A stretch of 64,000 nucleotides of DNA, taken from Candidatus Omnitrophota bacterium (GTDB lineage Bacteria > Omnitrophota > Gorgyraeia > Zapsychrales > Zapsychraceae). Positions 29,270-49,665 of the stretch are shown one piece after another. The translations under genes were made by a program, and so were the position numbers. Under the pieces are notes generated by a model. That model was given only the letters and a program-made list of their open reading frames with translations, ran no database searches and had not been told where the DNA came from. How positions within the stretch are numbered: position 1 is the stretch's first letter; each line of letters starts with the position of its first letter. Location: positions 15,828 through 79,827 of the forward strand of contig JAIORP010000090.1 in NCBI GenBank assembly GCA_021108075.1. Reading direction: 5' to 3'.

Positions 29270-29469
29270 TGTAAGAAGGATTCGCATCAATACTGCCGCG
29301 ACCTACGATAGGAAAAAAAGACTGGATAATATGGCCTACTCAGACCACATACCAGGGTTGAATGAGGGAATGGGTGTGGAAAACTGGAGTAACACCCTGT
29401 CTCCCTTGTCACGCAAAGCAGCGGGCACATCGAGCGAACATTACAAAATGCAAGGGGGCTCGCTGTGGC

Positions 29470-31357: not shown

Positions 31358-31696
31358 TTAACTTTGACATGTCGGCGTGGCACAAAGGGCAATAATGTCC
31401 TGACAGGTTGTGGGGTCGGGGTATCCATCCGTGCGGCAATATCCTCCGTTGGCCTTGAAACATCGGTAATCATACCAACAATATGTCCAATCCTGATCAT
31501 ACACGCATTCAATGGTCTCATCTGCATCATACAGGCGTCCAAAAGCCCAAGCGGAACCGGCCTTCTTCCAACTCCCATCCATGGCCCGCACAATATATTT
31601 TTGGAAAATCAAAAAAGCCCCTAGAAGCAAAAACATCATGGCCAAGAATTCCAAAGTCGATTGCCCTTTTCGATTTCTTTTCAACATAACCCTCAC
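31358..31696 (-). CDS. Small Flp/type IV pilin-like protein with a cysteine-rich C-terminal domain (8 Cys).
   Basis: N-terminal class III signal motif RKG|QSTLEF followed by a hydrophobic stretch. The C-terminal half is ...CVYDQDWTYCWYDYRCFKANGGYCRTDGYPDPTTCQDIIALCATPTCQS. Confidence 0.65.
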   Translation of the reverse strand: MRVMLKRNRKGQSTLEFLAMMFLLLGAFLIFQKYIVRAMDGSWKKAGSAWAFGRLYDADETIECVYDQDWTYCWYDYRCFKANGGYCRTDGYPDPTTCQDIIALCATPTCQS

Positions 31697-31767: not shown

Positions 31768-34700
31768 TTAAAAACTTAAACATTGAATAAATTTCATTCC
31801 CATGCCCTTGTTCATACCGTAATGATAATAGTATTCCATGCAAGCCTCTGTCTCAACGCCTTTTGCCAGGAATTTTGTCGCATAATCCCAACAAAGAGTG
31901 TTATCTAATGTTGGGTCAGAAGGATCATCACCAATTCGTATATAACGCCACAACATAAAGGCGTCACCATACAAGAAACCCGGACCTGCGTATGAGTTTG
32001 GATTGTTTGGTTGCGCGACATCTTGACAGGAGTTCTCCATCATATTAAAATCATTCGGATCAATGACAGGAAGTTGCCGGGTATTGATGATTCTAAAATT
32101 CCAAATTTTGGTTTCACCATCCGCGAAATAAATATCCCGGCTTTGCCGGCCCTGATCGTAACGAGAAACTCTCATTTTAATAACACCCCGTTCATCCACT
32201 AACTCATAACAACGGGTCATACCCCAGTCCTTACCATATGTACGCACACGTGGGAAAGCCCGATAAGAGCGCTGGTTTGAAGCACATGCAGCATCGCATC
32301 GCCCCGGAGTCCGCGCATCTACACGGACGATATGCCACAGGCCTTGAGATGTTGGATCTGTCGGATCAGGGGGATCTCCTTGCCAACCATAAATAACGTG
32401 ATAGGGCAAGGCCCTCTCGTCACCCGTCGCAAGATCAATGTAATATTTAATAAAATCCTGAGCCACATCATTAAGATATTCAGAAAATTCCTGGTAAGCG
32501 CGGGCTAAAATGTTGTACATATTGGTGAGCTCCGTCAGACGGTCGTTTAAAAAGCCAACCCGTTTACGCATTTTATTGATTTGATTGACAGACTGTTCTG
32601 ACGCTTCTCTGGTCAGATCAATAAACCCTTTAGCTTTAGGAATATTCTGCCCTAAATAACAATTGTCACAATTCCCGTCAATTCCGTCAAATGGAGGTGG
32701 CGGACATGGATAGGTCGCACTACAAAAACCATTCTGCCGTGTTTCCGCACAAGATCCTTGAGCAAGGATCATTCCCCGCTCTATCGCCCGCATGAAGACA
32801 GGATCCAAACAAGTACCGCCATCCAAAATATGATCGCCGGTCCAGTCACAATCATAACGTTGTGTATAAGCACAACTTGCGCCCATACACGTGGCCGTAT
32901 TCGTACAACTGTTCAAATCAATACAATCCCCCGGGTCACAAGCCGCAAGGCAGGCACAACCCAGACAATTCTGAACGGTACAACAGGGCAATGGTGTTGT
33001 TGTTGCACAAGACGGATGAGCAGGACATGCCGGACAGGCGGCCTCACAACACCCCGAACAGTCAGCCGTGCAACAGGCTAGGGGTATTGTCGTCGCACAA
33101 GACGGATGAGCAGGACATGCCGGACAGGCGGCGTCACAAGTTGTTGAACACGTGCTACAAGGAATACACGCTGGACACATAGGAACCACACAACTGGTTG
33201 GACAGGACGTATTACATCCATACGTGTTGAAGGTTGTCGGTGTTCCCGCGCACCACGTATCATCAATGACCGAACAGGTCCGATTAGCAACAATCGGATC
33301 CAAACAATCTATTCCCGGGCAATCCACCAGAGAATCAACATCTGCCGGAGAATTCTGCGTACAAACTAAATTTTGCGGACAAGTATCATATACCGTTCCA
33401 CTGCTTCCAACAGACCATGTGGGATAGACAAACGGACCCGCAAATTCCCCAAAAACAACGCCATATTTCGCATCGCCAAGATAAGTGGCATAAACAACAT
33501 CACAAAAATATGGTGCCATGGTGCAATCTTCCTGGAGCGGATTATTCGTGACATTCCCCAGCCAACATTCATTACAATCAACCCCTCCATTCGTCACCGG
33601 TGTTCCTGTATTTAAAATACCTGTGTAGCAATCATTAAAATCATTGTATACCGCCATATCCATCGGAATAAACGGCCAGTCATCATCAAAATAAGGAATA
33701 ATAGAACGCGGCAAATCCGAGCAAAGCCCTTGATAATTCCAGCAATCTGTCGCACAAAGCTCAAACTTTAAGGAATTTCCTACAACAGCCACCCCGGGGT
33801 GATGCGGTGTCCAGCCCCCATTGGTCGAGGCCGCATCCGGAGGGATCGTTGCCCCTCCGACTATATCATTCGCATTCCAATCCAAACACGCAACAAGATC
33901 CTCAAAATCTCCACGAACGCCGTTTCCATTGGAATCAAATGTCGCAATTTCCACCGCCGGAGAGTCCACTGGATCAGCAGCAGGAACACACCAAGCATCG
34001 GCAACCGGCTCTACGTGAGTAGCCCCGTAAATTTGGTGTTCAATGCGCAAGGCAACTTCCTCAATCTCCTTCATAAAAAGGACGAGCGCTCCATCATAAA
34101 TTTCACAAATCCAACAACAAGGGGGAGTCCCACTCGCAGCCGCACCAACAGTGTGATCGACACGAGGATTCCCGCAAACAGATGAATCACCCGACGCACC
34201 GCTATTGGTTCCATATTCAATCCAAACAGCGATATCCTGGTACCATTGATCAATATCTTTTGTGATAATGGCCGGTGTAGATTCAAAAGCAACTAATCCT
34301 TCGGCAATCTCTAAGAAACTGGGTAATCCATAGACCATGTCATCTAAGACATCATCCGGATAATCTTCCGGCACCCCGCGTACAGCATCAATCGACACAT
34401 ACGGCGGCGCGCTAACCCCGCACTCGCAATTTTCATACGCTGTTGGGCTTGTCGGCACCGTTTCATCTTCCAAACTTAAACAGGCGATCAAACGGTCGAA
34501 ATCAAAACCGCTCCCAGGCGTTGTTCCGGTAACAGCCGTATCCTCACCACCATGACGGGCACAACCAGTCTGATATGACCAGTGTTGGGAGCAAAATCTT
34601 TTTGCCCCTTTTTTCCAAAAACCTCTGGGCTGGTTCGTGACATCGAGTTCCGGCGGCAATGCAATCGGACCACCGGCCCCCGGGTAATTAGCATAATAAA

Positions 34701-36735
34701 CCACATAAGCATCATCTGGAATAAATCTCTGGGCACAAATGGCCTCAACAGCGAGAATATCTTGTTCCAATTCAAACCCATCGAGAGGTAGGGGATTGTT
34801 CAATGGCTCAAGATTCGGATCCGTCCGAGGATCGGTGTAAAGTGGATTAATGGCTGGCCCAAGCCCCCAAGGGTCTTGATTGGGAGGCGCAGCAGGTACT
34901 GTTGCCCCGCCAAAAGGAACAACCGATGTTGATCCAACCGTTCCGGCTGGTGGAAATACCGTTGTATGCAGCCCATCAACCTGACAACTGCGGTCATAAA
35001 CCAAACGAGCCGGATCGATAGCAACATAAAAATGCACGCCAGAAAGAGTGGGCGTCGGGATAAAGTCATATTCTAATTCTTCCGGCAATGTTGTCACCAG
35101 TGGATCACAATTAGGCGGCATAACATTCGGACAATTTCCTGTTGACCAATCAAACCAATGACAGTGTTCAGGGCGATACGTATGATCCGAATTTAAATCA
35201 TTGTTATTGACCCCCGTAGGATTCAGTGACAAATATGTTGTTTCCGTACCAACAACCACATCTTCCTGCAATAAATTCATCCCCCAATCCTGCAATTTGT
35301 AAAGAGTTGGGAAAACACCGCCACGCAGCTCACTGTTGCTGTAACTCAAAAAACGGTCGGGATTCTCAATGTAATTGGTTGCATCTTTGATGTTCCACGT
35401 CGGATCCGGTGGAATCGTCCCCGTGGGGATAAACGGTGTCAAAATTTGCGGATGAAACTGGCTGTCATCCGCATCAATAGAGACCAAATCACGGTTGACC
35501 TCTGTATTCACACCATAAAGAGAAATGATCTCATCATCTCGGCCAAGTTGCTCAAGGAAAGATAGAAAATAGTCTGCACTGGCAGGATCATTGTTGCGAT
35601 GGTTTTCAAAGTATCGATCATAGACCCATGGATAGAGCGTGTGTGAAATAGGCGTTGTGCTTGCCAGCTCGCAGGTTCCCCAAGCGCCACAATCTCCAGG
35701 AGCAGCACCAAATTGAGTACAACACTCATCCCGAATGGCCAGCACGTTATTTTCATCAGAAGGATCTGTCACAACTGCTGGCAAACAACAGGGATTACAC
35801 TCCGACCAACGCCCTGCAGCAGCCTCTGGTAAACAAGGGTGATTCGTATCCATCGCTCTTAATTGCGCATACGGATCAGGCTCATAGGATATGCGGACAG
35901 GATCATACAGCCCCCAATCGTCACCATCCTTATAAATAAACTCTTTTGTGGCGACAATAAAAATACCCACCGGTCCGGGGTCTGCTTCTCTGATATCGCG
36001 CAATCGCCAATCATAATATGCTGAAAACCGGCTGATTTCATCATTGGGAACAGCTCCGGTAAAGCCAAACAGGCGATCCCCATCCAGGTCCTTTATATCC
36101 GGAACCTTACCCTGATCTGTCACCGATGCAAATAAGGCTTTTTGCATACCCATCTCAAGGAAAGAATCCGTCATGCTCATTGTTTCCGTAATAATAGCAT
36201 TCCACATCTCTGTAAGAGACGGCTCAATAACTGTGGCCTGAATCACAACGGACGCAACAGCCAAAACAACCCCAATAACGGCAACAATAGCAGCGGCTGC
36301 CGCATAGGACGAGGTGCCATATGTACAAATGGTTAAAACCAGAGCGATAACCGCAATGACCAAAGACAAAACAGTTTTAAATAATCCAGAAGAATCACAC
36401 TTCTTTTTGCTCCCGCCCAATGTTTCTTCAACCAGCACTTGCCCATAACTGGCCATTTGTGATCCCAGTCGCGCCGCGCCTGATGTGGCCGCGACCTGAG
36501 AAACAAGCTTCCCTTTATTTAGTCGCCCCAAATTTTGAGAGGCGGCATAAAAAACAAGCGCGATGGCAATCACAAACATTAACACAATCGCAACTTGCCC
36601 TTTGTTAGAGAAACCTCGACCTCTGGGACTTATTGCCTTTTTTTCTAGAAAAGCGCTTGCTCGTTCTTTTTTTTGTGTTTCAGAAAAAAGAATAGAAGAA
36701 AATTTTTTCAACAATTTATTAACAGATTGAAACAA
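31768..36735 (-). CDS. 1,655-aa extremely cysteine-rich, Asp/Pro/Gly-rich protein with a pilin-like N-terminal segment (NKG|QVAIVLMFVIAIAL), a second TM segment and tandem CPACPAHPSCATT repeats. Candidate pilus-associated adhesin or tip protein.
   Basis: Single ORF in the track. The composition is dominated by C, D, P, G, T and N with many CxxC/CC motifs. It sits between the TadE/TadG-like pseudopilin genes and tadB. No recognisable enzyme motif was seen. Confidence 0.7.
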   Translation of the reverse strand: MFQSVNKLLKKFSSILFSETQKKERASAFLEKKAISPRGRGFSNKGQVAIVLMFVIAIALVFYAASQNLGRLNKGKLVSQVAATSGAARLGSQMASYGQVLVEETLGGSKKKCDSSGLFKTVLSLVIAVIALVLTICTYGTSSYAAAAAIVAVIGVVLAVASVVIQATVIEPSLTEMWNAIITETMSMTDSFLEMGMQKALFASVTDQGKVPDIKDLDGDRLFGFTGAVPNDEISRFSAYYDWRLRDIREADPGPVGIFIVATKEFIYKDGDDWGLYDPVRISYEPDPYAQLRAMDTNHPCLPEAAAGRWSECNPCCLPAVVTDPSDENNVLAIRDECCTQFGAAPGDCGAWGTCELASTTPISHTLYPWVYDRYFENHRNNDPASADYFLSFLEQLGRDDEIISLYGVNTEVNRDLVSIDADDSQFHPQILTPFIPTGTIPPDPTWNIKDATNYIENPDRFLSYSNSELRGGVFPTLYKLQDWGMNLLQEDVVVGTETTYLSLNPTGVNNNDLNSDHTYRPEHCHWFDWSTGNCPNVMPPNCDPLVTTLPEELEYDFIPTPTLSGVHFYVAIDPARLVYDRSCQVDGLHTTVFPPAGTVGSTSVVPFGGATVPAAPPNQDPWGLGPAINPLYTDPRTDPNLEPLNNPLPLDGFELEQDILAVEAICAQRFIPDDAYVVYYANYPGAGGPIALPPELDVTNQPRGFWKKGAKRFCSQHWSYQTGCARHGGEDTAVTGTTPGSGFDFDRLIACLSLEDETVPTSPTAYENCECGVSAPPYVSIDAVRGVPEDYPDDVLDDMVYGLPSFLEIAEGLVAFESTPAIITKDIDQWYQDIAVWIEYGTNSGASGDSSVCGNPRVDHTVGAAASGTPPCCWICEIYDGALVLFMKEIEEVALRIEHQIYGATHVEPVADAWCVPAADPVDSPAVEIATFDSNGNGVRGDFEDLVACLDWNANDIVGGATIPPDAASTNGGWTPHHPGVAVVGNSLKFELCATDCWNYQGLCSDLPRSIIPYFDDDWPFIPMDMAVYNDFNDCYTGILNTGTPVTNGGVDCNECWLGNVTNNPLQEDCTMAPYFCDVVYATYLGDAKYGVVFGEFAGPFVYPTWSVGSSGTVYDTCPQNLVCTQNSPADVDSLVDCPGIDCLDPIVANRTCSVIDDTWCAGTPTTFNTYGCNTSCPTSCVVPMCPACIPCSTCSTTCDAACPACPAHPSCATTIPLACCTADCSGCCEAACPACPAHPSCATTTPLPCCTVQNCLGCACLAACDPGDCIDLNSCTNTATCMGASCAYTQRYDCDWTGDHILDGGTCLDPVFMRAIERGMILAQGSCAETRQNGFCSATYPCPPPPFDGIDGNCDNCYLGQNIPKAKGFIDLTREASEQSVNQINKMRKRVGFLNDRLTELTNMYNILARAYQEFSEYLNDVAQDFIKYYIDLATGDERALPYHVIYGWQGDPPDPTDPTSQGLWHIVRVDARTPGRCDAACASNQRSYRAFPRVRTYGKDWGMTRCYELVDERGVIKMRVSRYDQGRQSRDIYFADGETKIWNFRIINTRQLPVIDPNDFNMMENSCQDVAQPNNPNSYAGPGFLYGDAFMLWRYIRIGDDPSDPTLDNTLCWDYATKFLAKGVETEACMEYYYHYGMNKGMGMKFIQCLSF
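33005..33132. repeat. Direct 90-bp (30-aa) tandem duplication inside the Cys-rich gene, encoding CPACPAHPSCATT(I/T)PL(A/P)CCT....
   Basis: gcacaagacggatgagcaggacatgccggacaggcggc is present at 33005 and again at 33095. Confidence 0.8.
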
Positions 36736-36758: not shown

Positions 36759-37118
36759 TTAATAGTGTGGCGCCGTATCATCCCAGACGGCATTCATCTC
36801 TGTTGAATGGTAGAAAGAGGGATCTATTTGCCCCAGCGGGCCTCGATAATAGCTGGCAGGATCATAACCCGACAGGCACATCCCAAAAGTAAGATTCCCC
36901 AGGCATAATCCGTAATCCTCAACAACGCTTTGAACGAGCAGCCGATCATGGGCCAATCGGCGTTGAGCCAAATCAATCCCCGTCCAACGCAAGATCATTA
37001 TAATTGAATAAAACATGATAAATAATATAATCATACAAAAAGTAAATTCAATAAGAACCTGAGCAAATTTTTGATGAGTCCTTTTTTTTAGATTTCTTTT
37101 TTGCAAAACTGAAAACAC
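36759..37118 (-). CDS. TadE-like minor pilin/pseudopilin.
   Basis: N-terminus KFA|QVLIEF followed by a hydrophobic helix (TFCMIILFIMFYSIIMIL). Size is 119 aa, and it lies within the Tad locus. Confidence 0.55.
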   Translation of the reverse strand: MFSVLQKRNLKKRTHQKFAQVLIEFTFCMIILFIMFYSIIMILRWTGIDLAQRRLAHDRLLVQSVVEDYGLCLGNLTFGMCLSGYDPASYYRGPLGQIDPSFYHSTEMNAVWDDTAPHY

Positions 37119-37147: not shown

Positions 37148-38620
37148 TTAATAAGTAATATTGACATACGGATCATTTTGCACATCGGTAATCCATTTGC
37201 GGCCTCTTATATCCCGGATCCGACTCCGCACAAAAATGCGCGGATAAATCGGAGGAACCGCGGCCATATCTCCTGCGATATAACAGGTTAAAACCAGATT
37301 ATTGCCGGAAAAACAATCAGGGAGTCCATTGCTACAACCGCCGTGAGGACTACAACAGACTTCAACAGGATTATATCCTGGACGCTCCGGATCAACTTGT
37401 GCCGCAGGAAGATATTCAAAACCCGTTTGGTGCACACAGAAACGACCTGTATCCGCACTAAGCTGAAGAAGCCGCGAGATGACATCAATCTGATCTTTTT
37501 TCTGTGCGTTACGCACAAACTGACGTCCTGGTTGATCTGCCGCGAACAGCTTTCCCTCTTCAATTAAAAGGTAGTGCCCCGGTTCGGTTTTGGTATAAAC
37601 CTGCATGTCACTCTGAAAGCCTGACCGGGGTTTTGTGTCGCTATCATTCACACCCGAATCCCAATCGCCTTCTTGAAAATCTTCAACGTAATAACTTATC
37701 GCCCGCCCCCAACCATCGCTGACCATGCTCCAGACTCGCTCTTGTTTAAGATCTCCATCCAGATCGAGCATAACATTAACCTCTTCAGCGATATTCATCA
37801 ATTCTGCTATATTGAAATTCCGGGTAATCGTACTATTTTTGGTCGAATCCCACCCCCGCACACGGACCCATTGCCAACCAAATTCTGCGCGAAGGGCTGG
37901 ACCAACGACATCGGTGGCTCCATCGCGATCCAGATCAAAACGGTCGTCTTCAGGCAATAAATCAGCGGGACACGAATTCGGGCAAGTTGAGGTAGGCGTT
38001 CCACAACAATATTTTTCACTCGCCCGATGGTTGAAAACCTTCATTGGAAAAAACCGACAACCCGCGGGGCTTTGAGTCGTTATAATAGCTCCTGTTGGAC
38101 TGAATGATGTCGTCGATCGGATCAGACAATTAGGATCCCAGGCGGAATCAGGACCTGTCATTGGAACCGCAATAGTAACATAGTTAGATATTGTTAAAGG
38201 AAAATATTGTCCATTAACAAAAGCATCAATTCGTGCAATGTCTTGCCTGTCATTTCCTTCAATAGCCATAAACAGGTGACGGCTAAAACTAGCGGAGCCG
38301 CTAGCCATGTACGGTGATCTGTTCTTCGAGGCAAATTTTGCGGATGCTCCTGCTAATCGATCTTCAACATAAATTACTGTTGCGCTGTTGCGCGAAGCCA
38401 TCGGCCCTGCCCCCATCATTCCTTCCGAATACATGTACGACTGTTGCAGGGCCATCCGCATCGCTCGAATATGATGATGCTGCCCATAAGATTGATTCAT
38501 AGATTGCTTAACCGTAACGCCGATGACAAAAAGAAGAACCGATCCAAAAACAGCCAATTCTAAAGCTGTTTGTCCCCAACGATTATCTGCTTTTTTTTGT
38601 TTTATATAAATTTGATTCAT
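37148..38620 (-). CDS. TadG-like large pseudopilin (490 aa) with Ca-binding-like D-x-D-x-D-G motifs.
   Basis: N-terminus NRWG|QTALELAVFGSVLLFVIG has Glu at +5 and a hydrophobic helix. Later motifs include FDLDRDGATDVVGP and LDLDGDLKQ. Confidence 0.6.
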   Translation of the reverse strand: MNQIYIKQKKADNRWGQTALELAVFGSVLLFVIGVTVKQSMNQSYGQHHHIRAMRMALQQSYMYSEGMMGAGPMASRNSATVIYVEDRLAGASAKFASKNRSPYMASGSASFSRHLFMAIEGNDRQDIARIDAFVNGQYFPLTISNYVTIAVPMTGPDSAWDPNCLIRSTTSFSPTGAIITTQSPAGCRFFPMKVFNHRASEKYCCGTPTSTCPNSCPADLLPEDDRFDLDRDGATDVVGPALRAEFGWQWVRVRGWDSTKNSTITRNFNIAELMNIAEEVNVMLDLDGDLKQERVWSMVSDGWGRAISYYVEDFQEGDWDSGVNDSDTKPRSGFQSDMQVYTKTEPGHYLLIEEGKLFAADQPGRQFVRNAQKKDQIDVISRLLQLSADTGRFCVHQTGFEYLPAAQVDPERPGYNPVEVCCSPHGGCSNGLPDCFSGNNLVLTCYIAGDMAAVPPIYPRIFVRSRIRDIRGRKWITDVQNDPYVNITY

Positions 38621-38636
38621 GTTAATCTAAAATTGT

Positions 38637-38673
38637 CGGTTCAGCCATGTTCCTGTTCACTGGCTGAACCGAA
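38637..38673. promoter_or_regulatory. Perfect 12-bp inverted repeat with a 13-nt spacer (TCGGTTCAGCCA-N13-TGGCTGAACCGA) in the short gap between the last pilin gene and the TadG-like gene. No flanking T-run. Intercistronic stem-loop or operator.
   Basis: Read directly from the sequence. Lies between the pilin stop at 38679 and the TadG-like start at 38620. Confidence 0.6.
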
Positions 38674-38678
38674 ACAAA

Positions 38679-39002
38679 CTAATAAGAGGCGACCCCTTCG
38701 TAGCCTATTTTTCTTTCCGTGCTGACCGTCATGTCTCGTCGTCGTGACCAATATCCAGTCGGATCATCGACGGTAATTAACTGTGTATTCGTATTATGTT
38801 CTAGCGTGTACAGCAAGGAGGTGTTGCCGAGTCGAGGATCATATTGGTCACCTAATCCGTCGACAGCTGCTTTCCATCGTCCCTGAATGCCTCTTTTGTA
38901 GTAATTGCTGATGCCGACAAACGCGCCCAATAAAATCACAATAATCGACGTGTACTCAAGGACGCTTTGGGCTTTTTTATTCTTTATCAGTCGTTTTAGC
39001 AT
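38679..39002 (-). CDS. Flp/type IVb pilin paralog.
   Basis: N-terminus KKA|QSVLEYTSIIVILLGAFVG. Good RBS (aggaagga) and a TATAAT box upstream on the minus strand. Confidence 0.7.
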   Translation of the reverse strand: MLKRLIKNKKAQSVLEYTSIIVILLGAFVGISNYYKRGIQGRWKAAVDGLGDQYDPRLGNTSLLYTLEHNTNTQLITVDDPTGYWSRRRDMTVSTERKIGYEGVASY

Positions 39003-39067
39003 TCTAATCTTCCTTCCTAAAGCAATTATACTATATTACAATAAATAAATAACATTTACCATAAATA

Positions 39068-39403
39068 TTATCGATCTCGATGTCCCATGTTGATTTTTGC
39101 ATTGGACACCGTGTAGATGGTGTCATCGTAGACGAAATTAAATATTCCCAATCGTTCCATTCGCCGTTTGTTCACCTGCGATCTTCTCGACGTATAGGAA
39201 TGCTCAAGATGCCCTCTCTCGCGTGAAAATTCTTGTTCAGCATTATGCTGATTTCCAATCTGATCGACGACCAAACGAATCATTGTCTGTGTTGACCTTT
39301 TTATGAGCGGAAGCATGGCATACATCAAACCCGTTACAAGAGTTAAGACGACCGTATATTCTAACATTGTTTGTGCTTGATTTTCATATTTTCGTCTTAA
39401 CAT
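39068..39403 (-). CDS. Flp/type IVb pilin paralog.
   Basis: N-terminus NQA|QTMLEYTVVLTLVTGLMYAML. Confidence 0.65.
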   Translation of the reverse strand: MLRRKYENQAQTMLEYTVVLTLVTGLMYAMLPLIKRSTQTMIRLVVDQIGNQHNAEQEFSRERGHLEHSYTSRRSQVNKRRMERLGIFNFVYDDTIYTVSNAKINMGHRDR

Positions 39404-39411
39404 AAATTATT

Positions 39412-39801
39412 TTATTCCCAACGAGCCGTTCCTGGTGCCCCGGTTTCCGATTGAGTGACGCTTGTTTTTGATTCGTCCACAATTTTACGAAAAATCCCTG
39501 TTGTTCCTCCTGGCAATAAACGGGTGTCATGTGTGGCGCGCGCAGCTGAACGTGTTATCACATTTGAATAATAGGGTTCATATTCTGCTCGGTAGAGTTC
39601 CTGTACAATATGGGGGTCAGATCGGTCGACGATAATCGCAAACATGGTGCGTCGAGCATCTTTGAAACGAGCCTGGACCGCACGCTTAAAATAAAAACTG
39701 ATGGCTGTTAACATGGCTAAAAACATTGTTATAAAAATAACATATTCGGTTGACATCGCTTGTGCTTTTTTGTTCCGGATTTTTCTTAACATAACACACA
39801 C
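39412..39801 (-). CDS. Flp/type IVb pilin paralog (atypical spacing of the Glu).
   Basis: N-terminus KKAQAMSTEYVIFITMFLAMLTAISFYF. It lies 8 bp upstream of the next pilin gene. Confidence 0.55.
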   Translation of the reverse strand: MCVMLRKIRNKKAQAMSTEYVIFITMFLAMLTAISFYFKRAVQARFKDARRTMFAIIVDRSDPHIVQELYRAEYEPYYSNVITRSAARATHDTRLLPGGTTGIFRKIVDESKTSVTQSETGAPGTARWE

Positions 39802-40737
39802 TTTTCCTTGATATTACAAGTATAACTGAAAATTTCCTTGCTGACCATATCACATATAATATTATACAGAAAAAAAATAAAAAATAAATAAAATCTTTTT
39901 TTTCATAAGTTTCCTTTTTTAATGTCAATTCAAGGCAGCACACTATCTTGTCCGCTTTCAGCGCTGTTCAAAACTAAAAGACCTGCCTGACATATCCATG
40001 CGAAGTAGTAATCTGATCAAGGGGCCTCTAACGCATTTGCGATTCTTGACTTACTTTGTTACGAAATTTTGTCGTGCGTTGCATCAGCCTGAAAAAATGT
40101 CCCAATAGTTAAACGGAACAACCTATAACGATAATGAATCTCGTCGCGCATGAACCGTCAAAAAAATATTGCTGCCGTGATGATCAAATACTCGTCGACA
40201 AATCAAAAAAATAAAGACGGCCTTATTCAATAATTCATTTAAATTGACAAAATAATCATGCTTAAATCAACACATGATTTAAAGAGAAAACACGTAATGA
40301 TGGAAGACCTGACGGAATAATATTCTCATGCCTTTTTTCGCAGCCAAAAATAAAAACAGAACCCGTTAATATAAAAAGTCGTTAAATAAATATAATCAGC
40401 ACATCTTTATAGGACGACACTATCATCTAACAATCAAAACCGGATCCTGAACAAAGCATGCGATATTGATGGAACAGCAGAGTTCAAACTGTATCACAAT
40501 AAAATCATCTTCCCTAAAATAATAAAGAAATCATCACATTTTTTCTGAGCGATTTTTTCCTTCTGCAAAAAATCATCCTAGCATCACCCACTCACAACAC
40601 GATCCGCTCATTTAAATAGACACAAAAAGTATTGTCACATATAGATTTATAATACTATCGCCTAAATTTAGAAAAGTCGCATTGGACTCTTTAAATGACT
40701 GATTATCGCTCATACAAATACTTTTTTGCGAACACAC

Positions 40738-40773
40738 AAAAGGCTTGTCAGAAAAATCCTGACAAGCCTTTTG
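40738..40773 (-). terminator. Strong rho-independent terminator. A 10-bp GC-rich stem (GGCTTGTCAG/CTGACAAGCC) with a 7-nt loop, flanked by A-run and T-run so it is bidirectional. Lies ~30 nt past the stop of pilin gene 40806..41132.
   Basis: aaaaggcttgtcagaaaaatcctgacaagcctttt read directly. Confidence 0.8.
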
Positions 40774-40805
40774 TTACAACTAACAAAACAACTGTAAGGT
40801 TATTA

Positions 40806-41132
40806 TTAACCCCAGAATTCTTGTTGAACGTTGATGATAAATTCATTCAATAGAGTGTTAGTTACTTCTGCGCCAGTCAATGTTGATGTTGTAACACCAG
40901 TAGTGAACGAATCTAAAGTAGTACTAATTGTCGATGTCTGAACTCTTACGTTTGTGTTACCACTGGAGAATTGGTCTCCAATGTCATCAGCAGCACTTTT
41001 AAATCGTCCTTGCAAGCCTCTTTTTATGTATACTTGAATGGACAATAAAGCACCAATGATAATGATAATGAGAACAGCGTATTCAAGGGTGCTTTGCCCT
41101 TTTTGTCTTTTTTTGTTTAAATACTTAAACAT
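40806..41132 (-). CDS. Flp/type IVb pilin paralog.
   Basis: N-terminus QKG|QSTLEYAVLIIIIIGALLSIQ. RBS aggagga. Confidence 0.7.
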   Translation of the reverse strand: MFKYLNKKRQKGQSTLEYAVLIIIIIGALLSIQVYIKRGLQGRFKSAADDIGDQFSSGNTNVRVQTSTISTTLDSFTTGVTTSTLTGAEVTNTLLNEFIINVQQEFWG

Positions 41133-41192
41133 TAGTCTTTCCTCCTGATAAAAGTTTATATCTATAGAATCATAGAATTAGAAAGTCTTAAA

Positions 41193-41561
41193 TTACCAAT
41201 CTTCACCCGCACCAACTTGTGAGTTGTAAAGGGATGTTTGATAACCAGCAGATTGTCTCGTTCTTTCATTGTCTGCCAAGTGTCTTGCACCATATATAAC
41301 TTGGTCATCCAACTCTTTAACATCCACGTCTTGTCTACTAATAGAATAGTTTGATTGCAAGTAGTATGGTTCGTACTGCATTGTAGTACCCATATCAGTT
41401 GTGGAATCTGACATGAACTTTGCTGCATCTTTCACGCGAGCTTGCAAAGCTCTTTGTGCATATGTTTGCATCGCAATAATACCTGCAACAACGAGAGAAA
41501 TCAAAATAGCATATTCAGCGGTATTTTGCGCTTTTTTATTTTTAAAAAGTTTCTTAAACAT
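41193..41561 (-). CDS. Flp/type IVb pilin paralog.
   Basis: N-terminus KKA|QNTAEYAILISLVVAGIIAMQ. RBS aggagga. Confidence 0.7.
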   Translation of the reverse strand: MFKKLFKNKKAQNTAEYAILISLVVAGIIAMQTYAQRALQARVKDAAKFMSDSTTDMGTTMQYEPYYLQSNYSISRQDVDVKELDDQVIYGARHLADNERTRQSAGYQTSLYNSQVGAGEDW

Positions 41562-41622
41562 TTATTTTCCTCCTAAAGTTACTATCAATAAATAATTTCC
41601 ATAATGATAACTGTAAAATAAA

Positions 41623-41826
41623 TTATCGAGAACCTGATAATCTATTAGCCATTTTTGACATGCCATTGGTACCAGTTAAAAGCGTAGTGTTAAATGCAGT
41701 TTGAAAGACACCACCACTGGCAAGGAAAATCAAAAGGGCGGCGATTACAGCAGCGAACAAAATAATGTATTCTACCGTACTCTGTCCTTTTTTCTTTTTT
41801 GATTTCATGATATTTCTTTTGAGCAT
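41623..41826 (-). CDS. Flp/type IVb pilin paralog (67 aa).
   Basis: N-terminus KKG|QSTVEYIILFAAVIAALLIF. RBS aaggagga. Confidence 0.7.
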   Translation of the reverse strand: MLKRNIMKSKKKKGQSTVEYIILFAAVIAALLIFLASGGVFQTAFNTTLLTGTNGMSKMANRLSGSR

Positions 41827-41892
41827 TATTATCCTCCTTAAACATATAACTTAACTTTACCCCAATAAAACATTCTTCTTCTTGAAGAACAT

Positions 41893-42063
41893 TTATTCTG
41901 CTGTGAATTCATTTTGAATCATCTGTTGCGTTGCCTGAACCGAACGATACACATAAGTACCCATTGCTATAACTGCAGAAGATATAATAGCTGCGACTAT
42001 GGCATATTCAATTAAATGTTGTCCCTTTTGTCTTTTTATTTTTTTTTGTTTAATTGACATCAT
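41893..42063 (-). CDS. Flp/type IVb pilin paralog (56 aa, below the track's size cut-off).
   Basis: Hand translation of the minus strand gives MMSIKQKKIKRQKG|QHLIEYAIVAAIISSAVIAMGTYVYRSVQATQQMIQNEFTAE*. Confidence 0.6.
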   Translation of the reverse strand: MMSIKQKKIKRQKGQHLIEYAIVAAIISSAVIAMGTYVYRSVQATQQMIQNEFTAE

Positions 42064-42349
42064 CGCCGCTACCTTATGTGTTCAACAAATAACTTTGCCT
42101 TCACTCCTAACCTTTAAGAGTAAAAATTCAAGAAGGCTCTATCCCTTCTCAAAAAATAAACCTGAGAACGGGCCCTTCAGCAACTATAAGCTTAAAAACA
42201 CTTATAATTTACTGAAGGAGTTCAAACACCTTGTGGTGTGGAAGTTCAATTTTCAAAGATTCTCATATTATATCTGACAAATATTATGATAAAAGTATAC
42301 CATATAGAAATTACTTCTGTCAATGCTTCAGTTTTAACTAAAAATTATT

Positions 42350-44374
42350 TCAAAAATCAATAAATAACAACTTATTTTCCTGCGTCTTGATATGAGCGGC
42401 ATTAAGTCTTTGGCAGGCTTGTCGCAGTAATTTAGAATTTTCACAAACTCTTGATTCGCAAAGGTTTACGTTTACTTCATTGTCTGTCTTGCAAAATTTA
42501 CCCCGCAGGGACAACAAGGCGGCAAACGCATCTTCCCATTCTTCATTGGAAAGATATTTAAAATATAAATCTGGAAAAAATCTTTTCAATGTATATAAAA
42601 TAAGATCCTGCGCATAACTTTCAATCAAACTGATCACTCCTTGATCCATGGAAGCCATATCAAATGAAGCTTCCGGCATCTCGCAATTGTCCTCTTTTCG
42701 CCCATAGCCTACGTCTAAGTCGATCTGAGCAAAATTTCGCCAGCTACATAGATAAGAAAAAAGCACATCCTCCGTCTCTTGAGATAAATCATTCGTAATT
42801 AATGTACAGATTTCTTTATCCCTCTTTTCATTCCAAATACTAATGCCTTTTAATATAAAACTCACTTCTTCTCCGTTCTTCTCTGATATTGGAATCAATC
42901 CTTCCTTATAATAAAAAACCTCATCGTAGGCATTGTGATAAATAGCCTTAAAATCTCCCCTATTAAGCATTGCGAGTCCTTCTTGATACTGACAAACATA
43001 CGGCAGAGAAGAGCCGGGTTCTATCTGACCCTTCACATTTAAAAACATTCTGCTTTTCTGCTTGGGGTTTATTCCAATAACAACTCGCCTTTTCATCCTA
43101 GGAAAAACATCAAATGTTGCTAAAGGTTGCTGATTACTGCTGCAGATATTTATTTGCTTCACTTCTTGCGTTGAAACAGAGAAAAAAACCTTTAAAAAAG
43201 AATGGAGATGAGGGACATCGACATCTAACGAAGAAACATAAAAAACGTCCTGGTTACTGATAATATATTTTGTAACATCCTCAATTGATTTTAATAAAGT
43301 GCTTGTATTAATTGGGGGGGGAGCTGTGTGGACTGTAAATTGACTAAAATTAATGAAATATTTCGTGCCATCTACCAAGTTAAGCTCAACAAAGGCCGTT
43401 CCTAAAAAAACTTCCCTTTTACGCATTTTATATTCAAAAAGAATTTGTTCGGATATTTGTTGCTGATTAAGCGTGGCCCACTCCCGATTCAGGTCGACCT
43501 CTTTATAATTTAAAATACATTGAAATAATTCTGTCTGAGCGGAAACGAATGACATGGTGTCTTCCAGGCTATCAAGAAACACCCTTTGCTTTATGACCTT
43601 AAGCATCGTAAGCAGAGAGAGGGCATCCGGTAAATTCTTGGACCATAAACGAGACGTGCTTTGAAACAACTCTTGCCAAAAGGCACCTCGATTTAATTCC
43701 CATTCAGCAGCTCGAACAAAAACCATTCCCATGTTGGGAAAAACTGGGGACATCCTTTGTTCATATTCACGTTTTAATGTGCGAACATATTGTAAAAATT
43801 CCTGATGTTTCTTTTCACGCCAGAAAGGATTTTGTTTCGAATCCTTTAACCTCATTTTTCTATCCGGAATATGCGGTTCCTTTTTAGAAATGACGGGTAT
43901 CGCCTCTTCCCGTCTCTGTTCCAGCTCGTGTGTCCCATCCCCTTTAAACTGTTGCTCTGCCAGTAGAAGTTTATCAATTTCTTTTTTCAAGTCAGGCCTC
44001 TTCTTTATTCGGATGCTGTTCCTGTCTACGGATATATTTGAAGGTAAACTTTTAAAGAGCTGATTCTTTTTCTGTTCCGGGATAATAAACTTCAGTTCTT
44101 TTGGTGCATTCTTTTTTTGAAAACGTCTGCCGACCTGATTGCTTAATAGCGCTTTTTTGAGTATGGTATTAACAGAGGATTTGGATATTTTTATTTCAAA
44201 TTCCTTGCTCGCTAGTTCCGCTAACGCACGGCAACCGGAGGAAGGATTTTCTTTTTTAGCGTTGACAATATAGTCAACAACTTCTTTTTTTAATTTGTGA
44301 ATGACTCCCATAAATATATGATCAAAAATTTTTATTTTATAAAAATTATTAATGGTTTTATTGCATACAATCAA
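42350..44374 (-). CDS. 674-aa Lys-rich hypothetical protein with an N-terminal helix-turn-helix resembling transposase/Psq-type HTH. Function unknown; possible regulator or domesticated transposase.
   Basis: ...VDYIVNAKKENPSSGCRALAELASKEFEIKISKSSVNTILKKA... near the N-terminus. No TM segments, and no other motif I recognise. Confidence 0.4.
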   Translation of the reverse strand: MIVCNKTINNFYKIKIFDHIFMGVIHKLKKEVVDYIVNAKKENPSSGCRALAELASKEFEIKISKSSVNTILKKALLSNQVGRRFQKKNAPKELKFIIPEQKKNQLFKSLPSNISVDRNSIRIKKRPDLKKEIDKLLLAEQQFKGDGTHELEQRREEAIPVISKKEPHIPDRKMRLKDSKQNPFWREKKHQEFLQYVRTLKREYEQRMSPVFPNMGMVFVRAAEWELNRGAFWQELFQSTSRLWSKNLPDALSLLTMLKVIKQRVFLDSLEDTMSFVSAQTELFQCILNYKEVDLNREWATLNQQQISEQILFEYKMRKREVFLGTAFVELNLVDGTKYFINFSQFTVHTAPPPINTSTLLKSIEDVTKYIISNQDVFYVSSLDVDVPHLHSFLKVFFSVSTQEVKQINICSSNQQPLATFDVFPRMKRRVVIGINPKQKSRMFLNVKGQIEPGSSLPYVCQYQEGLAMLNRGDFKAIYHNAYDEVFYYKEGLIPISEKNGEEVSFILKGISIWNEKRDKEICTLITNDLSQETEDVLFSYLCSWRNFAQIDLDVGYGRKEDNCEMPEASFDMASMDQGVISLIESYAQDLILYTLKRFFPDLYFKYLSNEEWEDAFAALLSLRGKFCKTDNEVNVNLCESRVCENSKLLRQACQRLNAAHIKTQENKLLFIDF

Positions 44375-44426: not shown

Positions 44427-44768
44427 TCAAGAAATGTCTAATTCGTCATCGACTGAAACACCTTTTTGGGCTATCTTGCCACTGGGCAACTCAATACAAT
44501 AACTTGATTTTGAGTAAATACGGCTCATTCTCCACGGTTTAATGTTTTCAAGCAAGCCAACGACTTTGTGATTCTTGGAAACAAAAATCACATCAATAGC
44601 AAATCGCATAAAAAACATATGAATGGAATTGCAACGGGTGATGACCAGCCCTTCGTCGTCACTTAAAGACAATCGACTCATAAGCCCGATCAGCCGCGAA
44701 AAAAATGAATCGGCCATGCGCACATTGCTAGCAATGATACTGTTTTTCGTTTTATTCTTGACGATCAA
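44427..44768 (-). CDS. DUF192/UPF0127-like small protein.
   Basis: 113 aa with ...RLIGLMSR...ITRCNSIHMFFMRFAIDVIFVSKNHKVVGLLENIKPW...IELPSGKIAQKGVSVDDEL, matching the conserved CxxIHTfFM.fpIDvvFlD pattern of the family. Confidence 0.5.
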   Translation of the reverse strand: MIVKNKTKNSIIASNVRMADSFFSRLIGLMSRLSLSDDEGLVITRCNSIHMFFMRFAIDVIFVSKNHKVVGLLENIKPWRMSRIYSKSSYCIELPSGKIAQKGVSVDDELDIS

Positions 44769-44862: not shown

Positions 44863-47046
44863 TTAATGCTTATATCCTGAAGAAAACATCTCTTTATCCA
44901 AGACAATCCCTTTTTTAGCAAACTCGTCATAAAAGGTTGGCAAATTTCCTACTGAAACAAACTCACCTACAACCTTCCCGTCGTCACTTATTCCTGTTTG
45001 ATTAAAAAGAAAAATATCCGCTAATTTCAAGTGAAACTCTTCATCAAGGTGGAGGGTTTCGGAGATACCCGTTATCTTTCTTGTCCCGTCAGAGAAACGG
45101 TTCACGTGGACAATAACATCAATGGCGCTAGCAATCATTTCATTGATAGCGCGCACAGGCAACTCAATCCCACTCAATAAAATCATGGCGTGCATACGGG
45201 TCATAACGTCTGACGTCGAATTAGCGTGTAGTGTTGTCAAAGAACCGTCGTGCCCGGTGTTCATAGCTTGTAACATGTCTAAAACCTCACCGCCGCGACA
45301 CTCACCAATAACAATTCGGTCCGGACGCATACGTAAACTGTTCGTAAACAAATCCCTAATTGTGATCTCCCCTTTACCTTCCACGTTTTTCGGGCGAGAT
45401 TCAAGACGAGCCCAATGAATCTTTTTTAGTCTTAATTCGGCCGCATCTTCAATGGTAATAATTCGTTCATCGTCTGGGATAAATTCCGAAATGATATTCA
45501 ACAGCGTGGTCTTACCCGAGCCTGTTCCACCGGAGACAATCATATTTTTACGGGCGAGAACACATGCCTGTAAAAAATCTCCCATAACCTTCGACAAACT
45601 GCTGTATCTCTCAAGAAGCTGTCTTAATTCCAAACGTTCAACACCAAATTTTCTAATTGTAATCATTGGACCATTCAATGACAGCGGGGGAATAATCGCA
45701 TTAACACGAGAACCGTCGGGTAAACGGGCATCCACCATGGGGGTTGATTCATCAATCCGGCGGCCAAGCGGGGCGATAATACGGTCAATAATGGCACGTA
45801 ATTTTTGATCAGAAATAAATCTTTTATTCGTTAAGAATATTTTTCCATTTTTTTCAACATAAATCTGATTTCGGTTATTAACCATGATATCGGTCACATC
45901 ACCATCAGCCAAAAAATCCTCCAAGGGGCCTAAGCCTAAAGCTTCATTGATGATGTCGCGCACTAATCTTCGACGTTCATCATGGGCAACAATCCGTCCT
46001 CCCGCTTCCTCCATCAACAAATTCGACACAACTTTCTCTGACAACTTCTTAACCTCTTTAACCGTCTGTTCATCTGTTAAAGCGTCCAAGCGGATCCCTT
46101 CCATATTCAATCGTTCAACCAAACGCTCATGGACCTTCTGCTTAATAGCGATAATTTCATCCTCGGCAGAAGAGAATGCCGCCTCACCAGAACCGGGCGT
46201 TTCCATTTGACGGGAAATACCAAATTTCTCCCAGAACTGACTCTGTTGTGATGTTATCCCATCAGTCGTTCTCTGCCGCTCGATATCCGTTGTTTGGACA
46301 AAAACATCTTTCGTCTTAAACAAATTAACCAATCTGAAAAAAGCATCAGAGACCTTGGATTTGGGACTGTCAATCACACAGGGAACGCCTTGGTTTAATG
46401 CCATCCCAACGGCTTTACCATCTGAAGGGATATGGCTGATAATCTCACACGTCAGAGCAGACCGGACTTCTTGCCACGCCACGCTTCCCCGGCTTTCAGA
46501 GCGGTTTAAAACGAGTTTTACCATTTTATTTGGAAATTGGAGGCTTTGAAGGACTTCCATACACCATTTGATTTGATAAACAGCTAAAATATCTGGTGTA
46601 GCGATAAGCATAATAAGGTTAGAATAATCAAAAATCGTAATGAGTGTCTCGCTAAAAGATTTTCCCGTGTCAATCACAATGTATTCATAACACTTTGCAG
46701 CATTTTTTAGAAACGGTTTAAGATTATCCGGGGATATATGTCCTATCTCTTTTGTATTTTTTACGGCAGGAATAAAATGAAATCCGCTAGAGTGAGAAAC
46801 AACGTAACTTTGTATCACTTCCGGTTCTGTTGTTTCATCAACTTGTGCAAATGAATCAGCTATCGATTTTCGAGGGGAAAGGTTAAGCATTCGGGCCATA
46901 TCTTGTCCCGCTTGAAAGTCTAAATCAATCAATAAAACTTTATAGCCTGCAAGCGCTAACGCTGTCCCTAAATTGACAGCCACAAATGTTTTACCGACAC
47001 CACCTTTATTACTAAATATAGAAATTGTTTTAGCGTTCATATACAC
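44863..47046 (-). CDS. cpaF: Fusion of a CpaE/TadZ-like MinD/ParA-family ATPase domain (N-terminal) with a CpaF/TadA secretion ATPase (C-terminal).
   Basis: N-terminus ISIFSNKGGVGKTFVAVNLGTALALAGYKVLLIDLDFQAGQD (deviant Walker A of ParA/MinD). C-terminal half has ...VSGGTGSGKTTLLN...IEDAAEL...RMRPDRIVIGECRGGEVLDMLQAMNTGHDGSLTTLHANS (VirB11/CpaF family). 727 aa. Confidence 0.8.
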   Translation of the reverse strand: MYMNAKTISIFSNKGGVGKTFVAVNLGTALALAGYKVLLIDLDFQAGQDMARMLNLSPRKSIADSFAQVDETTEPEVIQSYVVSHSSGFHFIPAVKNTKEIGHISPDNLKPFLKNAAKCYEYIVIDTGKSFSETLITIFDYSNLIMLIATPDILAVYQIKWCMEVLQSLQFPNKMVKLVLNRSESRGSVAWQEVRSALTCEIISHIPSDGKAVGMALNQGVPCVIDSPKSKVSDAFFRLVNLFKTKDVFVQTTDIERQRTTDGITSQQSQFWEKFGISRQMETPGSGEAAFSSAEDEIIAIKQKVHERLVERLNMEGIRLDALTDEQTVKEVKKLSEKVVSNLLMEEAGGRIVAHDERRRLVRDIINEALGLGPLEDFLADGDVTDIMVNNRNQIYVEKNGKIFLTNKRFISDQKLRAIIDRIIAPLGRRIDESTPMVDARLPDGSRVNAIIPPLSLNGPMITIRKFGVERLELRQLLERYSSLSKVMGDFLQACVLARKNMIVSGGTGSGKTTLLNIISEFIPDDERIITIEDAAELRLKKIHWARLESRPKNVEGKGEITIRDLFTNSLRMRPDRIVIGECRGGEVLDMLQAMNTGHDGSLTTLHANSTSDVMTRMHAMILLSGIELPVRAINEMIASAIDVIVHVNRFSDGTRKITGISETLHLDEEFHLKLADIFLFNQTGISDDGKVVGEFVSVGNLPTFYDEFAKKGIVLDKEMFSSGYKH

Positions 47047-48795: not shown

Positions 48796-49665
48796 TTACA
48801 ATTCTCTCCCTCCTCGAAAGATTTGAATAAAGGGTTTCCCTTCTTCCGTTTCCTCATCAATCGACGTAATAACTGGTTTCTTCTGTTTCGGTAACATTAA
48901 CTCTGTGCCCTGATGCTCTAAAACAAAATCTGCTAGGGATTCCCAGGAAGCAACTTGTAGGTTCCATGTTTCCTTTTCAGCTGGAGCTCTTAAAGATAAT
49001 TGCAATTGTCCATTCTGTTGTGCAAAGCTCATTAAACCGACTTCTTCGGGCGTAAGCGCTAGCGTAATATTCAATGATCGAGTTTTTGATTGTGCTTCGT
49101 ATTGAGGGGCTTTACCTGCCATCTGAAAATTCGTGCCAACAGCTAAGACCTGTATATTTTGAAATAAAATTGTTGTAACGGTATCCGTTTCACTCGTATC
49201 AACACCTCGACCTGGTACTTCCAGGTGAGACAAAACATCAACAAAGTCACCCGGGCTAATGAGACCGCCAACAGCTGACAACGAATCAATCATGATTGTT
49301 AAAGCCCGCTTTCCTGGAGGTGTTTTAACAGAAAATGAATTCATCTCAACAACAGGGTCTTTTTTCGGAGCTTTTCCTCCTGGTCCACCAGGCTGAGAGG
49401 GTAAATTTGCCACCATCATTTGTTGTTGTTCTTGTTTCTTTCTTAAATCTTCCTGTTGCGCAACAACTTGCCTCATTTGCTTTTTGACGAGTTCTAACTC
49501 TCCAATTAAAGCGGCATTCTTTTTTTGATAATCTTTTGCCATGTCTTTCGCTTGACCTTTAATACTAGATTGGACATAGTGGCTGGTTAAAAACGTTGCA
49601 ACCAAACCCAGGCCTATTGCAAGCGAAATAGAAGCAAATTGCTTTTTGTTCTCAATGTTCATCAT
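48796..49665 (-). CDS. cpaB: CpaB/RcpC-like Flp pilus assembly protein.
   Basis: N-terminal TM segment. Contains PPGKRALTIMIDSLSAVGGLISPGDFVDVL, characteristic of CpaB. Lies immediately upstream of the secretin with a 3-bp gap. Confidence 0.65.
   Translation of the reverse strand: MMNIENKKQFASISLAIGLGLVATFLTSHYVQSSIKGQAKDMAKDYQKKNAALIGELELVKKQMRQVVAQQEDLRKKQEQQQMMVANLPSQPGGPGGKAPKKDPVVEMNSFSVKTPPGKRALTIMIDSLSAVGGLISPGDFVDVLSHLEVPGRGVDTSETDTVTTILFQNIQVLAVGTNFQMAGKAPQYEAQSKTRSLNITLALTPEEVGLMSFAQQNGQLQLSLRAPAEKETWNLQVASWESLADFVLEHQGTELMLPKQKKPVITSIDEETEEGKPFIQIFRGGREL

Follow-up and report, generated by a model that had tools for sequence, protein, structure and literature searches.

The Tad pilus loci of Aggregatibacter (flp-1-flp-2-tadV-rcpCAB-tadZABCDEFG) and Caulobacter (pilA-cpa) combine RcpC/CpaB, a secretin, TadZ and TadA functions and two platform proteins with a short Flp-like pilin carrying the motif G/A-x4-E-Y and with larger pseudopilins encoded downstream. 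Tad complexes have already been reported for the Omnitrophota, a group of suspected predators or parasites, and are expressed in V. archaeovorus, for which the published work refers to TadB/C, TadZ, RcpA and Flp and does not dissect the pilins (PMC10066038). Here we analyze a stretch of 64,000 nucleotides (nt) from a Candidatus Omnitrophota bacterium (GenBank assembly GCA_021108075.1, contig JAIORP010000090.1, positions 15,828 to 79,827), referred to as the window, which carries an array of small pilin-like genes at 38679-42063 on its minus strand. As judged from gene content, the array belongs to a complete Tad (type IVc, Flp) pilus operon in which the machinery listed above recurs together with a Flp-like pilin and larger candidate pseudopilins. 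Sequence comparison indicates that its seven genes, g1 to g7, are seven different, anciently diverged families that stand in fixed order across the phylum. With moderate confidence, we read the locus as encoding one Tad pilus, composed of a major Flp pilin together with conserved minor, adapter and tip pilins that are expressed in two tiers.

Two pilus systems of predatory bacteria offer further points of comparison. The Kil pilus of Myxococcus xanthus, a predator's cell-contact pilus, comprises the major pilin KilP, the adapters KilK and KilO and the tip proteins KilL, KilM and KilN, of which KilN is large and disulfide-rich; it thus combines a major Flp pilin, short Flp adapters and TadE/F/G-like tip proteins (PMC12075869). 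The present locus would share this layout. Bdellovibrio bacteriovorus carries flp1-flp4, in 2017 called the largest type IVb complement known, and likewise presents a case of several Flp paralogs that are needed together by a predator and are differentially regulated (PMC5430801). In the widespread, uncultured and ultra-small Omnitrophota themselves, the foremost candidate for a host-contact organelle is the Tad pilus.

The seven-gene pilin array and its conservation

The array consists of seven pilin-like open reading frames (ORFs) encoding, from g1 to g7, 56, 67, 122, 108, 129, 111 and 107 amino acids (aa). A first-pass annotation of this DNA had counted eight genes at this place; the eighth small paralog lies outside it, at 31358-31696. 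All seven ORFs show the features described in that annotation, namely a Lys/Arg-rich leader, the motif [G/A]-Q-x3-E-Y (with x4 in g5 only) and a hydrophobic helix. When the window was scanned with a strict form of the signal motif, 10 of its 224 ORFs of at least 50 aa matched, all of them in this single locus and on its minus strand, as compared to none in 200 shuffles. The ten carriers are the seven array genes, the genes of a 490-aa (37148-38620) and a 119-aa protein (36759-37118), and the eighth paralog. The N-terminal likeness, on whose significance the idea of a pilin array had been made to depend, is therefore far above chance.

A scan of one genome per species returned 177 genomes with a relative of g4, and 80 loci were compared, about half of them titled Omnitrophota and the remainder mostly metagenome-assembled genomes (MAGs) titled 'uncultured Planctomycetales'. 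Loci running from the upstream genes through the 490-aa gene were counted as complete (n = 61), and statistics for the individual positions of the array were computed on 51 loci. At positions 1-4, 6 and 7, Glu is found at +5 in 45-51 of the 51 orthologs, and Gln at +1 is near-universal in the pilin families. Position 5 has Glu at +6. The displaced Glu of g5, described before as the result of an insertion, is real and represents a trait of the family, since it is found at +6 in 33 of the 51 position-5 orthologs. The processing signal, with G/A at -1 and Glu at +5, is thus present in the sequence, and cleavage is predicted from it.

In tblastn searches with all window proteins, the whole operon proved syntenic in related loci. 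The seven pilin genes occur in the same order in 38 of the 61 complete loci, and including nine further loci in which position 5 best matches g3 the count rises to 47 of 61. An extra g2-like gene is inserted between g4 and g5 in five of the 61, and a few genomes carry tandem copies of the g2-g3-g4 block; loci with such additions include L023, L024, L060, L082 and L086 as well as L016 and L026. A profile of the five longer pilins matched 3389 database proteins, the best 120 of which are mostly full-length g4 orthologs with approximately 63-88% identity.

Mean pairwise identities for positions 1 to 7 are 0.56, 0.52, 0.54, 0.60, 0.34, 0.35 and 0.45, making g4 the most conserved gene of the array, and within each position conserved motifs extend to the C-terminus. 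With the signal and the hydrophobic helix removed, profile comparison by hhalign links position 3 to 5 (98.7%), 4 to 7 (99%), 4 to 6 (95%) and 5 to 7 (96.5%); overall, the C-terminal parts of positions 3-7 are mutually homologous at 92-99%. The earlier description of mature parts that are hypervariable and diverge completely hence does not hold: the C-termini of positions 3-7 are related to each other, and every gene of the array is conserved among its orthologs. In comparisons with three close relatives (DNA identity 81-90%), the ratio of nonsynonymous to synonymous substitution rates (dN/dS) of g1-g4 lies between 0.04 and 0.39 in 11 of 12 comparisons. The outlier of 2.45 was obtained for g1 (56 codons) versus locus L088, because the changes fall in the cleaved leader peptide. 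The array genes are under purifying selection. Each of them is complete, with its own start codon, signal and usually a ribosome binding site (RBS), and there are no silent cassettes. Direct reading of the sequence agrees with the first-pass annotation that g5 (39412-39801) lacks a good RBS; that g5 would be the sole exception does not stand, since the RBS of g6 is poor as well.

The proposed major pilin is g1 (41893..42063, minus strand, as are all array genes), a 56-aa Flp-type pilin of about 42 aa in its mature form with the conserved mature sequence AMSTYVFRSVQATQQ. It matches the Pfam family Flp_Fap (PF04964) with an E-value of 1.5e-5 and 25.1 bits (gathering cut-off 32.2), and 47 of the 51 g1 orthologs match at E<=0.01, the best at 3.2e-7, which makes g1 the probable Flp homolog of the array. 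The short 67-aa pilin g2 (41623..41826) carries a class III signal peptide and is the only one to reach the threshold of Class_IIIsignal (PF04021; 28.2 bits, cut-off 23.7), while the g4 family shows weak matches in 7 of 118 members. The suggestion of class III or pilin-type signals is in this way supported by family models for g1 and g2, whereas g3-g7 gave no family match. The gene g3 (41193..41561, 122 aa) belongs to a QYEPYY family related to g5, and g4 (40806..41132, 108 aa) is characterized by the motifs KRGxQGRxK...DDIGDQ...EFWG. An AlphaFold2 model of g4, calculated from 118 aligned sequences, places a helix at residues 15-52 and four antiparallel strands at 60-99 with a mean predicted local distance difference test score (pLDDT) of 76; as modelled, g4 has the classical pilin shape of a long N-terminal helix and an antiparallel beta-sheet head. 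The YEPYY-family member g5 (39412..39801) is 129 aa long from a GTG start codon and 126 aa from an ATG at 39792. It is followed after 8 nt by g6 (39068..39403, 111 aa), which is probably translationally coupled to it. The last gene, g7 (38679..39002, 107 aa), is g4-like and features KRGIQGRWK..GDQYDPR.

Predicted promoters, leader RNA and terminators

Sequence analysis indicates that conserved cis elements frame the array and split it in two: a predicted promoter and a covarying leader RNA before g1, and a covarying terminator past g4. The promoter-like site P1 (42294..42323, minus strand) lies directly past the stop codon of the upstream 674-aa gene and is of the sigma-70 type (TTGACA-18-TATACT with TG), matching 11 of 12 consensus positions. 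A regular-expression search found a TTGACA/extended -10 box before g1 in at least 21 of 75 related loci, 125-299 nt from the ATG, and further loci with GGCATACT as the -10 element were seen in the alignment. About 50 nt past the predicted transcription start, a small hairpin is located at 42226-42240 on the minus strand (ACACC-ACAA-GGUGU, then U's); its arms vary among relatives yet stay complementary in the alignment (CCCC/GGGG, UUCC/GGAA).

Immediately before g1 lies a putative structured 5' leader RNA (42061..42142, minus strand), in which ATAGA is followed by a helix P1 (GCCxx..xxGGC) enclosing a variable hairpin P2, by a conserved single strand, and by the Shine-Dalgarno sequence and ATG of g1. 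A covariance model was built from a hand-anchored and hand-checked seed in two search rounds and scores 42.3 bits on the window (E 1.5e-6, round R2). In 1.3 Mb of sequence the model has 52 matches, of which those inspected adjoin the first pilin gene on its upstream side. In the alignment, which had been fitted to the model, 93.8% of the helix cells are paired, as compared to 74% in shuffles, compensatory changes occur in all 10 pairs, and slid controls collapse. Independent minimum free energy folds of the leaders recover this P1/P2 architecture, with arms that differ in sequence. RNAalifold predicted no pairs on MAFFT alignments of the leaders, because MAFFT misaligned the helices, and Rfam contains no match for this RNA. 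CsrA-type GGA sites in the leader were considered and dropped, as the first site is not conserved, the window included.

The terminator-type hairpin past g4 (40736..40774, minus strand; consensus AUGGCUUAC..stem..GUAAGCCAU and a U-run) has perfect 16-nt arms at 40738-40773 and a folding energy of -29.8 kcal/mol (z -5.7), in keeping with the strong terminator proposed earlier at these positions. It is conserved across the phylum and lies 25-50 nt past the g4 stop codon. An alignment of 43 such sequences shows compensatory changes in 15 of 19 pairs, values reached in 0 of 500 shuffles, and many of the G-U pairs can form in the sense strand but not in its complement. When the hairpin motif GGCUUR/YAAGCC was scored on both strands of the loci, 46 of 60 matches were located directly past g4, and the remaining 14 are mostly the same palindromes on the opposite strand. 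With these 46 of 60 occurrences at the 3' side of g4, the possibility that GGCTTR/YAAGCC hairpins serve as terminators throughout these genomes was rejected. A terminator-like hairpin follows position 4 in 28 of the 51 loci and any other position in 0-4 of them; in L060, the one locus with block copies that was checked, it sits after the last g4 copy. The spacer between g4 and g5 has a median length of 166 nt as compared to 9-59 nt for the other spacers (9 nt between g5 and g6) and is the longest in most genomes, so that the proposed division of the array into sub-operons is supported. By contrast, the hairpin previously noted past g1 (~41840-41880) is weak (z -1.25) and occurs in 4 of the 51 loci. 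The stretch that separates g7 from the 490-aa gene contains another hairpin, at 38636-38672 on the minus strand, which is strong (-28 kcal/mol, z -4.4) and runs into AAUUUU; hairpins at this position are rare elsewhere (4/51).

The extent of the first unit is suggested by six contigs from six other samples (the JGI 33000355xx series and one SRA run), which start 174-213 nt before g1, or 7-52 nt downstream of the predicted P1 start, and end 15-60 nt past g4, either at the 5' arm of the hairpin or within it. This is what assembled g1-g4 mRNAs would look like; a contig from an ordinary groundwater metagenome does not have these bounds. One of the six transcript-like contigs, L087, carries in its positions 1-97 a fragment of transfer-messenger RNA (tmRNA; RF00023, E 2.8e-15, with the tag frame ANDDNYALAA) fused to its 5' end, the junction being the position at which a sister contig starts. 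In L087, two abundant RNAs have probably been joined into a chimera, as would be expected of transcriptome assemblies.

In the window, the g4-g5 spacer reaches 1013 bp, the maximum of the 51 loci, with an AT-rich non-coding portion at 39802..40735. The gap of about 1 kb without ORFs noted in the first-pass annotation is real, since four assemblies made independently from other samples carry it in identical form together with the array. Neither the pilins nor other loci nor the remainder of the window resemble it, and neither a Rfam match at E<=1 nor excess structure (folding z +0.8) nor meaningful repeats were found, so that a small RNA or structured element was rejected. Some genomes have the g2-g3-g4 block in duplicate at this place, but a degenerate remnant of it was likewise rejected after relaxed tblastn and blastn searches returned nothing. 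Scanning metagenomes with g5 for sister lineages yielded two distant loci only, and the contigs of the closest relatives stop at the hairpin. We read the gap as a lineage-specific expansion at a spot that takes extra genes in other genomes. The search for a promoter or a small RNA in the gap thus turned up no small RNA, while at its g5 end it points to a candidate promoter P2 (39819..39866, minus strand), with TATAAT at 39861-39866 and TGGTCA-17-TATACT at 39819-39847 (9 of 12 consensus positions). In 23 of the 51 loci a TAYAAT box lies no more than 110 nt before g5, where 9 such loci would be expected and 300 shuffles gave at most 17; this suggests a secondary promoter for g5 and the genes downstream.

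The Tad operon and its surroundings

In the order of the operon, all on the minus strand, RcpC/CpaB, the secretin, TadZ-TadA, a DUF192 protein and a 674-aa protein precede the seven pilins, which are followed by the 490-aa protein, the 119-aa protein, a 1655-aa protein, the eighth pilin, TadB and TadC. The rcpC/cpaB gene (48796-49665) matches Pfam RcpC at 1.6e-25. The secretin (47116-48792) combines Secretin (7.2e-40) and T2SS-T3SS_pil_N domains with a C-terminal TonB_C domain (5.3e-15), and the presence of a secretin and TonB_C in one protein is an unusual combination. A fused protein (44863-47046) joins a ParA/MinD-like, TadZ-like N-terminal half to a TadA ATPase (T2SSE, 3.2e-61) and is matched over its full length in related loci with 59-72% identity. 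The T2SSF proteins TadB (30388-31245) and TadC (29470-30366) form a pair at 7e-16 and 9e-13. Of the features by which a Tad system is recognized, a TadA/CpaF-type ATPase, two platform proteins, and RcpC/CpaB with a secretin are thus found. Between the ATPase and the pilins, most related loci also contain the genes of the DUF192 protein (44427-44768, assigned by Pfam) and of the 674-aa protein (42350-44374). The latter is poorly conserved overall, with a better conserved N-terminal part that gives a weak helix-turn-helix match, and might possibly regulate the adjacent pilin promoter.

Downstream of the array, the 490-aa protein (37148..38620), recognized in the motif scan by its pilin-type N-terminus (RWGQTALELAVF), has no Pfam family and is syntenic in related loci with approximately 25-42% identity; we propose it as a putative large minor pilin or tip component. 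The 119-aa protein (36759..37118), also found by the motif scan and syntenic, is a candidate TadE-like pseudopilin with a faint match to TadE (E 0.52). The Cys-rich 1655-aa protein (31768..36735) has a hydrophobic pilin-like N-terminal segment (NKGQVAIVLMFVIAIALVF), no Pfam family and a syntenic position, and by analogy to KilN it is a candidate TadG/KilN-like tip protein (PMC12075869). Between it and tadB lies the eighth small pilin (31358..31696, about 109 aa, MLKRNRKGQSTLEF; g8 in the following), which is related to g7 (BLASTP 7e-12) and to the g4 family (hhalign 97.5%) and is syntenic elsewhere, its best match there sometimes being g7 or g4.

The genes dnaA, dnaN, gyrB and gyrA (50796-62064, minus strand) adjoin the Tad operon on its upstream side and place it near the replication origin. 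The coordinates of the Tad locus in the V. archaeovorus genome (12382-29832; PMC10066038) suggest a similar placement. On the other side, in the approximately 1.7 kb between tadC and a DUF1016/SNase-like gene (27752-29469), no ORF exceeds 63 aa and Rfam gives nothing at gathering thresholds. A giant ORF (2-26002) of at least 8667 stop-free codons lies on the same strand as tadC, some 3.5 kb downstream of it, and passes the left edge of the window; giant ORFs of this kind are known in Omnitrophota.

A fixed pilin set compared with known pili

For the reading as one Tad pilus with a major Flp pilin and minor, adapter and tip pilins, we envisage that a prepilin peptidase encoded elsewhere would cut after the conserved G/A and that the short Flp-like g1 would polymerise into the shaft. 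The genes g2-g4 would be expressed from the same abundant mRNA as g1, which would end at the hairpin and may be stabilised by it, while read-through or a secondary promoter would give lower expression of g5-g7, the 490-aa, 119-aa and 1655-aa proteins, TadB/C and the eighth pilin. As low-copy priming or adapter subunits, the helix-plus-sheet pilins g3-g8 would link the Flp shaft to a large tip complex formed by the 490-aa, 119-aa and Cys-rich 1655-aa proteins, after the model put forward for the Kil pilus of Myxococcus. Such a pilus might serve attachment to host or prey cells. Eight small pilins and three larger pilin-like proteins provide a parts list for structural modelling and metaproteomics, and the leader and terminator RNA elements are testable handles on the setting of pilin stoichiometry.

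Several observations weigh against this reading. The Flp_Fap score of g1 falls short of the Pfam cut-off (25.1 versus 32.2 bits), and g3-g7 match no Pfam or NCBIfam family. A Foldseek search with the g4 model found no similar solved structure, and sequence-profile searches of the PDB with g1 and g4 gave nothing significant. Pfam scans of the larger ORFs in the 64-kb window did not find a prepilin peptidase (TadV/CpaA, A24), nor did any ORF of the window look like a candidate for one, and the TadE and TadG labels of the 119-aa and 1655-aa proteins reflect N-terminal resemblance and synteny only. As to the transcript-like contigs, whose samples are JGI 3300035569/78/88/91/93 and SRA runs SRR28338155 and SRR28415863, a seventh, L097, has a similar start distance and reads through the hairpin, and a literature search on the sample accessions returned no sample type. 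Finally, g2-g4 appear to share the transcription unit of g1 and may therefore be abundant rather than minor subunits.

This last point makes a heteropolymeric shaft, in which g1-g4 or more of the pilins would be structural subunits at comparable stoichiometry, a serious alternative, to which we assign a minor but appreciable chance; the multi-subunit fibre raised in the first-pass annotation is in this respect compatible with the data. The placement of g1-g4 in one unit between the conserved promoter and leader and the terminator speaks for it, as do Shine-Dalgarno sequences of g2-g4 that are stronger than that of g1, the high conservation of g4 and the tandem duplication of g2-g3-g4 as a block. 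We know, however, of no characterised Tad pilus with a multi-subunit shaft. Moreover, the known short Flp-like and helix-plus-sheet pilins that occur beside a major pilin are low-copy (PMC12075869). A farther-reaching version, in our view unlikely, would be a new filament architecture in which helix-plus-sheet pilins (g2-g4, perhaps g3-g8) are stoichiometric with the Flp subunit, gated by an undescribed riboswitch-like or protein-binding leader RNA and the conserved 3' hairpin and tied to host or prey contact. The same paralogs could instead be alternative pilins from which one machine builds different homopolymeric pili depending on the condition, as with Haloferax PilA1-6. A common N-terminal assembly module with differing heads and two expression units that could be separately regulated would suit such a choice, but within each unit the genes are co-transcribed and very closely spaced (median 9-59 nt), which argues for co-production, and nearly every genome retains all seven; we regard this explanation as quite improbable.

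We hold it just as improbable that the pilins are pseudopilins of a type II-like piston that exports or displays giant surface proteins. A major pilin with several minor pilins does resemble the GspG-K arrangement, and the giant ORF lies just downstream on the same strand. According to a 2026 preprint, secretion or pilus genes flank 13 of 14 Omnitrophota giant genes. Adjacency alone is nevertheless weak evidence, and the core genes (RcpC, TadZ, two T2SSF proteins, a Flp-like pilin) are of the Tad and not of the Gsp type. Least probable by far is the repertoire for antigenic variation suggested in the first-pass annotation, or a phase-variable one, in which paralogs would diversify fast or be swapped to evade recognition. 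The conserved N-termini with different C-termini and the single dN/dS value of 2.45 may give this impression; order and orthology are, however, fixed across species, the C-termini are conserved within each position, the remaining dN/dS values are low and the outlier stems from the cleaved leader, and neither silent cassettes nor repeats able to drive recombination are present. Comparing pilin copy number and sequence across MAGs, as had been proposed, gave no support for variation either, with the same seven genes in 47 of the 61 complete loci, and the impression of a hypervariable antigenic repertoire is thereby corrected.

Compared with Aggregatibacter and Caulobacter, the Omnitrophota locus encodes eight small pilins instead of one to three, and six of these are predicted to have a beta-sheet head and are matched by none of the pilin family models. 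In addition, TadZ and TadA are fused, the secretin carries TonB_C, the DUF192 and 674-aa genes are inserted, Gln at +1 is near-universal and the locus contains no prepilin peptidase. The termination past g4 recalls the 'termination cascade' past the pilin genes of the Aggregatibacter tad locus. Archaeal class III pilins, such as the EppA-dependent Epd pilins of Methanococcus, also feature K/R-G-Q...E with Gln at +1, and several of them are encoded together; the machinery here is in contrast bacterial, with an outer-membrane secretin and RcpC, and only g2 reaches the PF04021 threshold. The minor pilins of type IVa pili and type II secretion systems (FimU-PilVWXE, GspHIJK) are likewise sets of four to five small helix-plus-sheet pilins encoded in a row; their expression is below that of the major pilin, and they prime assembly and bear a tip protein. 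Neither sequence comparison nor Pfam revealed a relationship to them, and in contrast to them some of the small pilins here are in the unit of the major pilin.

The Kil pilus differs in that its major pilin and four tip sets are encoded in dispersed clusters and are interchangeable, whereas the set described here is contiguous and fixed, with a single candidate tip trio, likened to the Kil tip by analogy, and with small pilins that are mostly helix-plus-sheet. In Bdellovibrio the flp genes are short and number four, two of which are located away from the tad operon; a single operon of the Omnitrophota encodes twice that number of small pilins. A paper describing this pilin cassette was not found in the open-access literature, although an earlier description is possible. 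As a Tad system, the locus is of a known kind; next to pilin families absent from Pfam and NCBIfam, a near-universal Gln at +1 reminiscent of archaeal class III signals and two covarying RNA elements without a Rfam family, what is new is the size and fixity of its pilin set, with eight small pilins in one operon.

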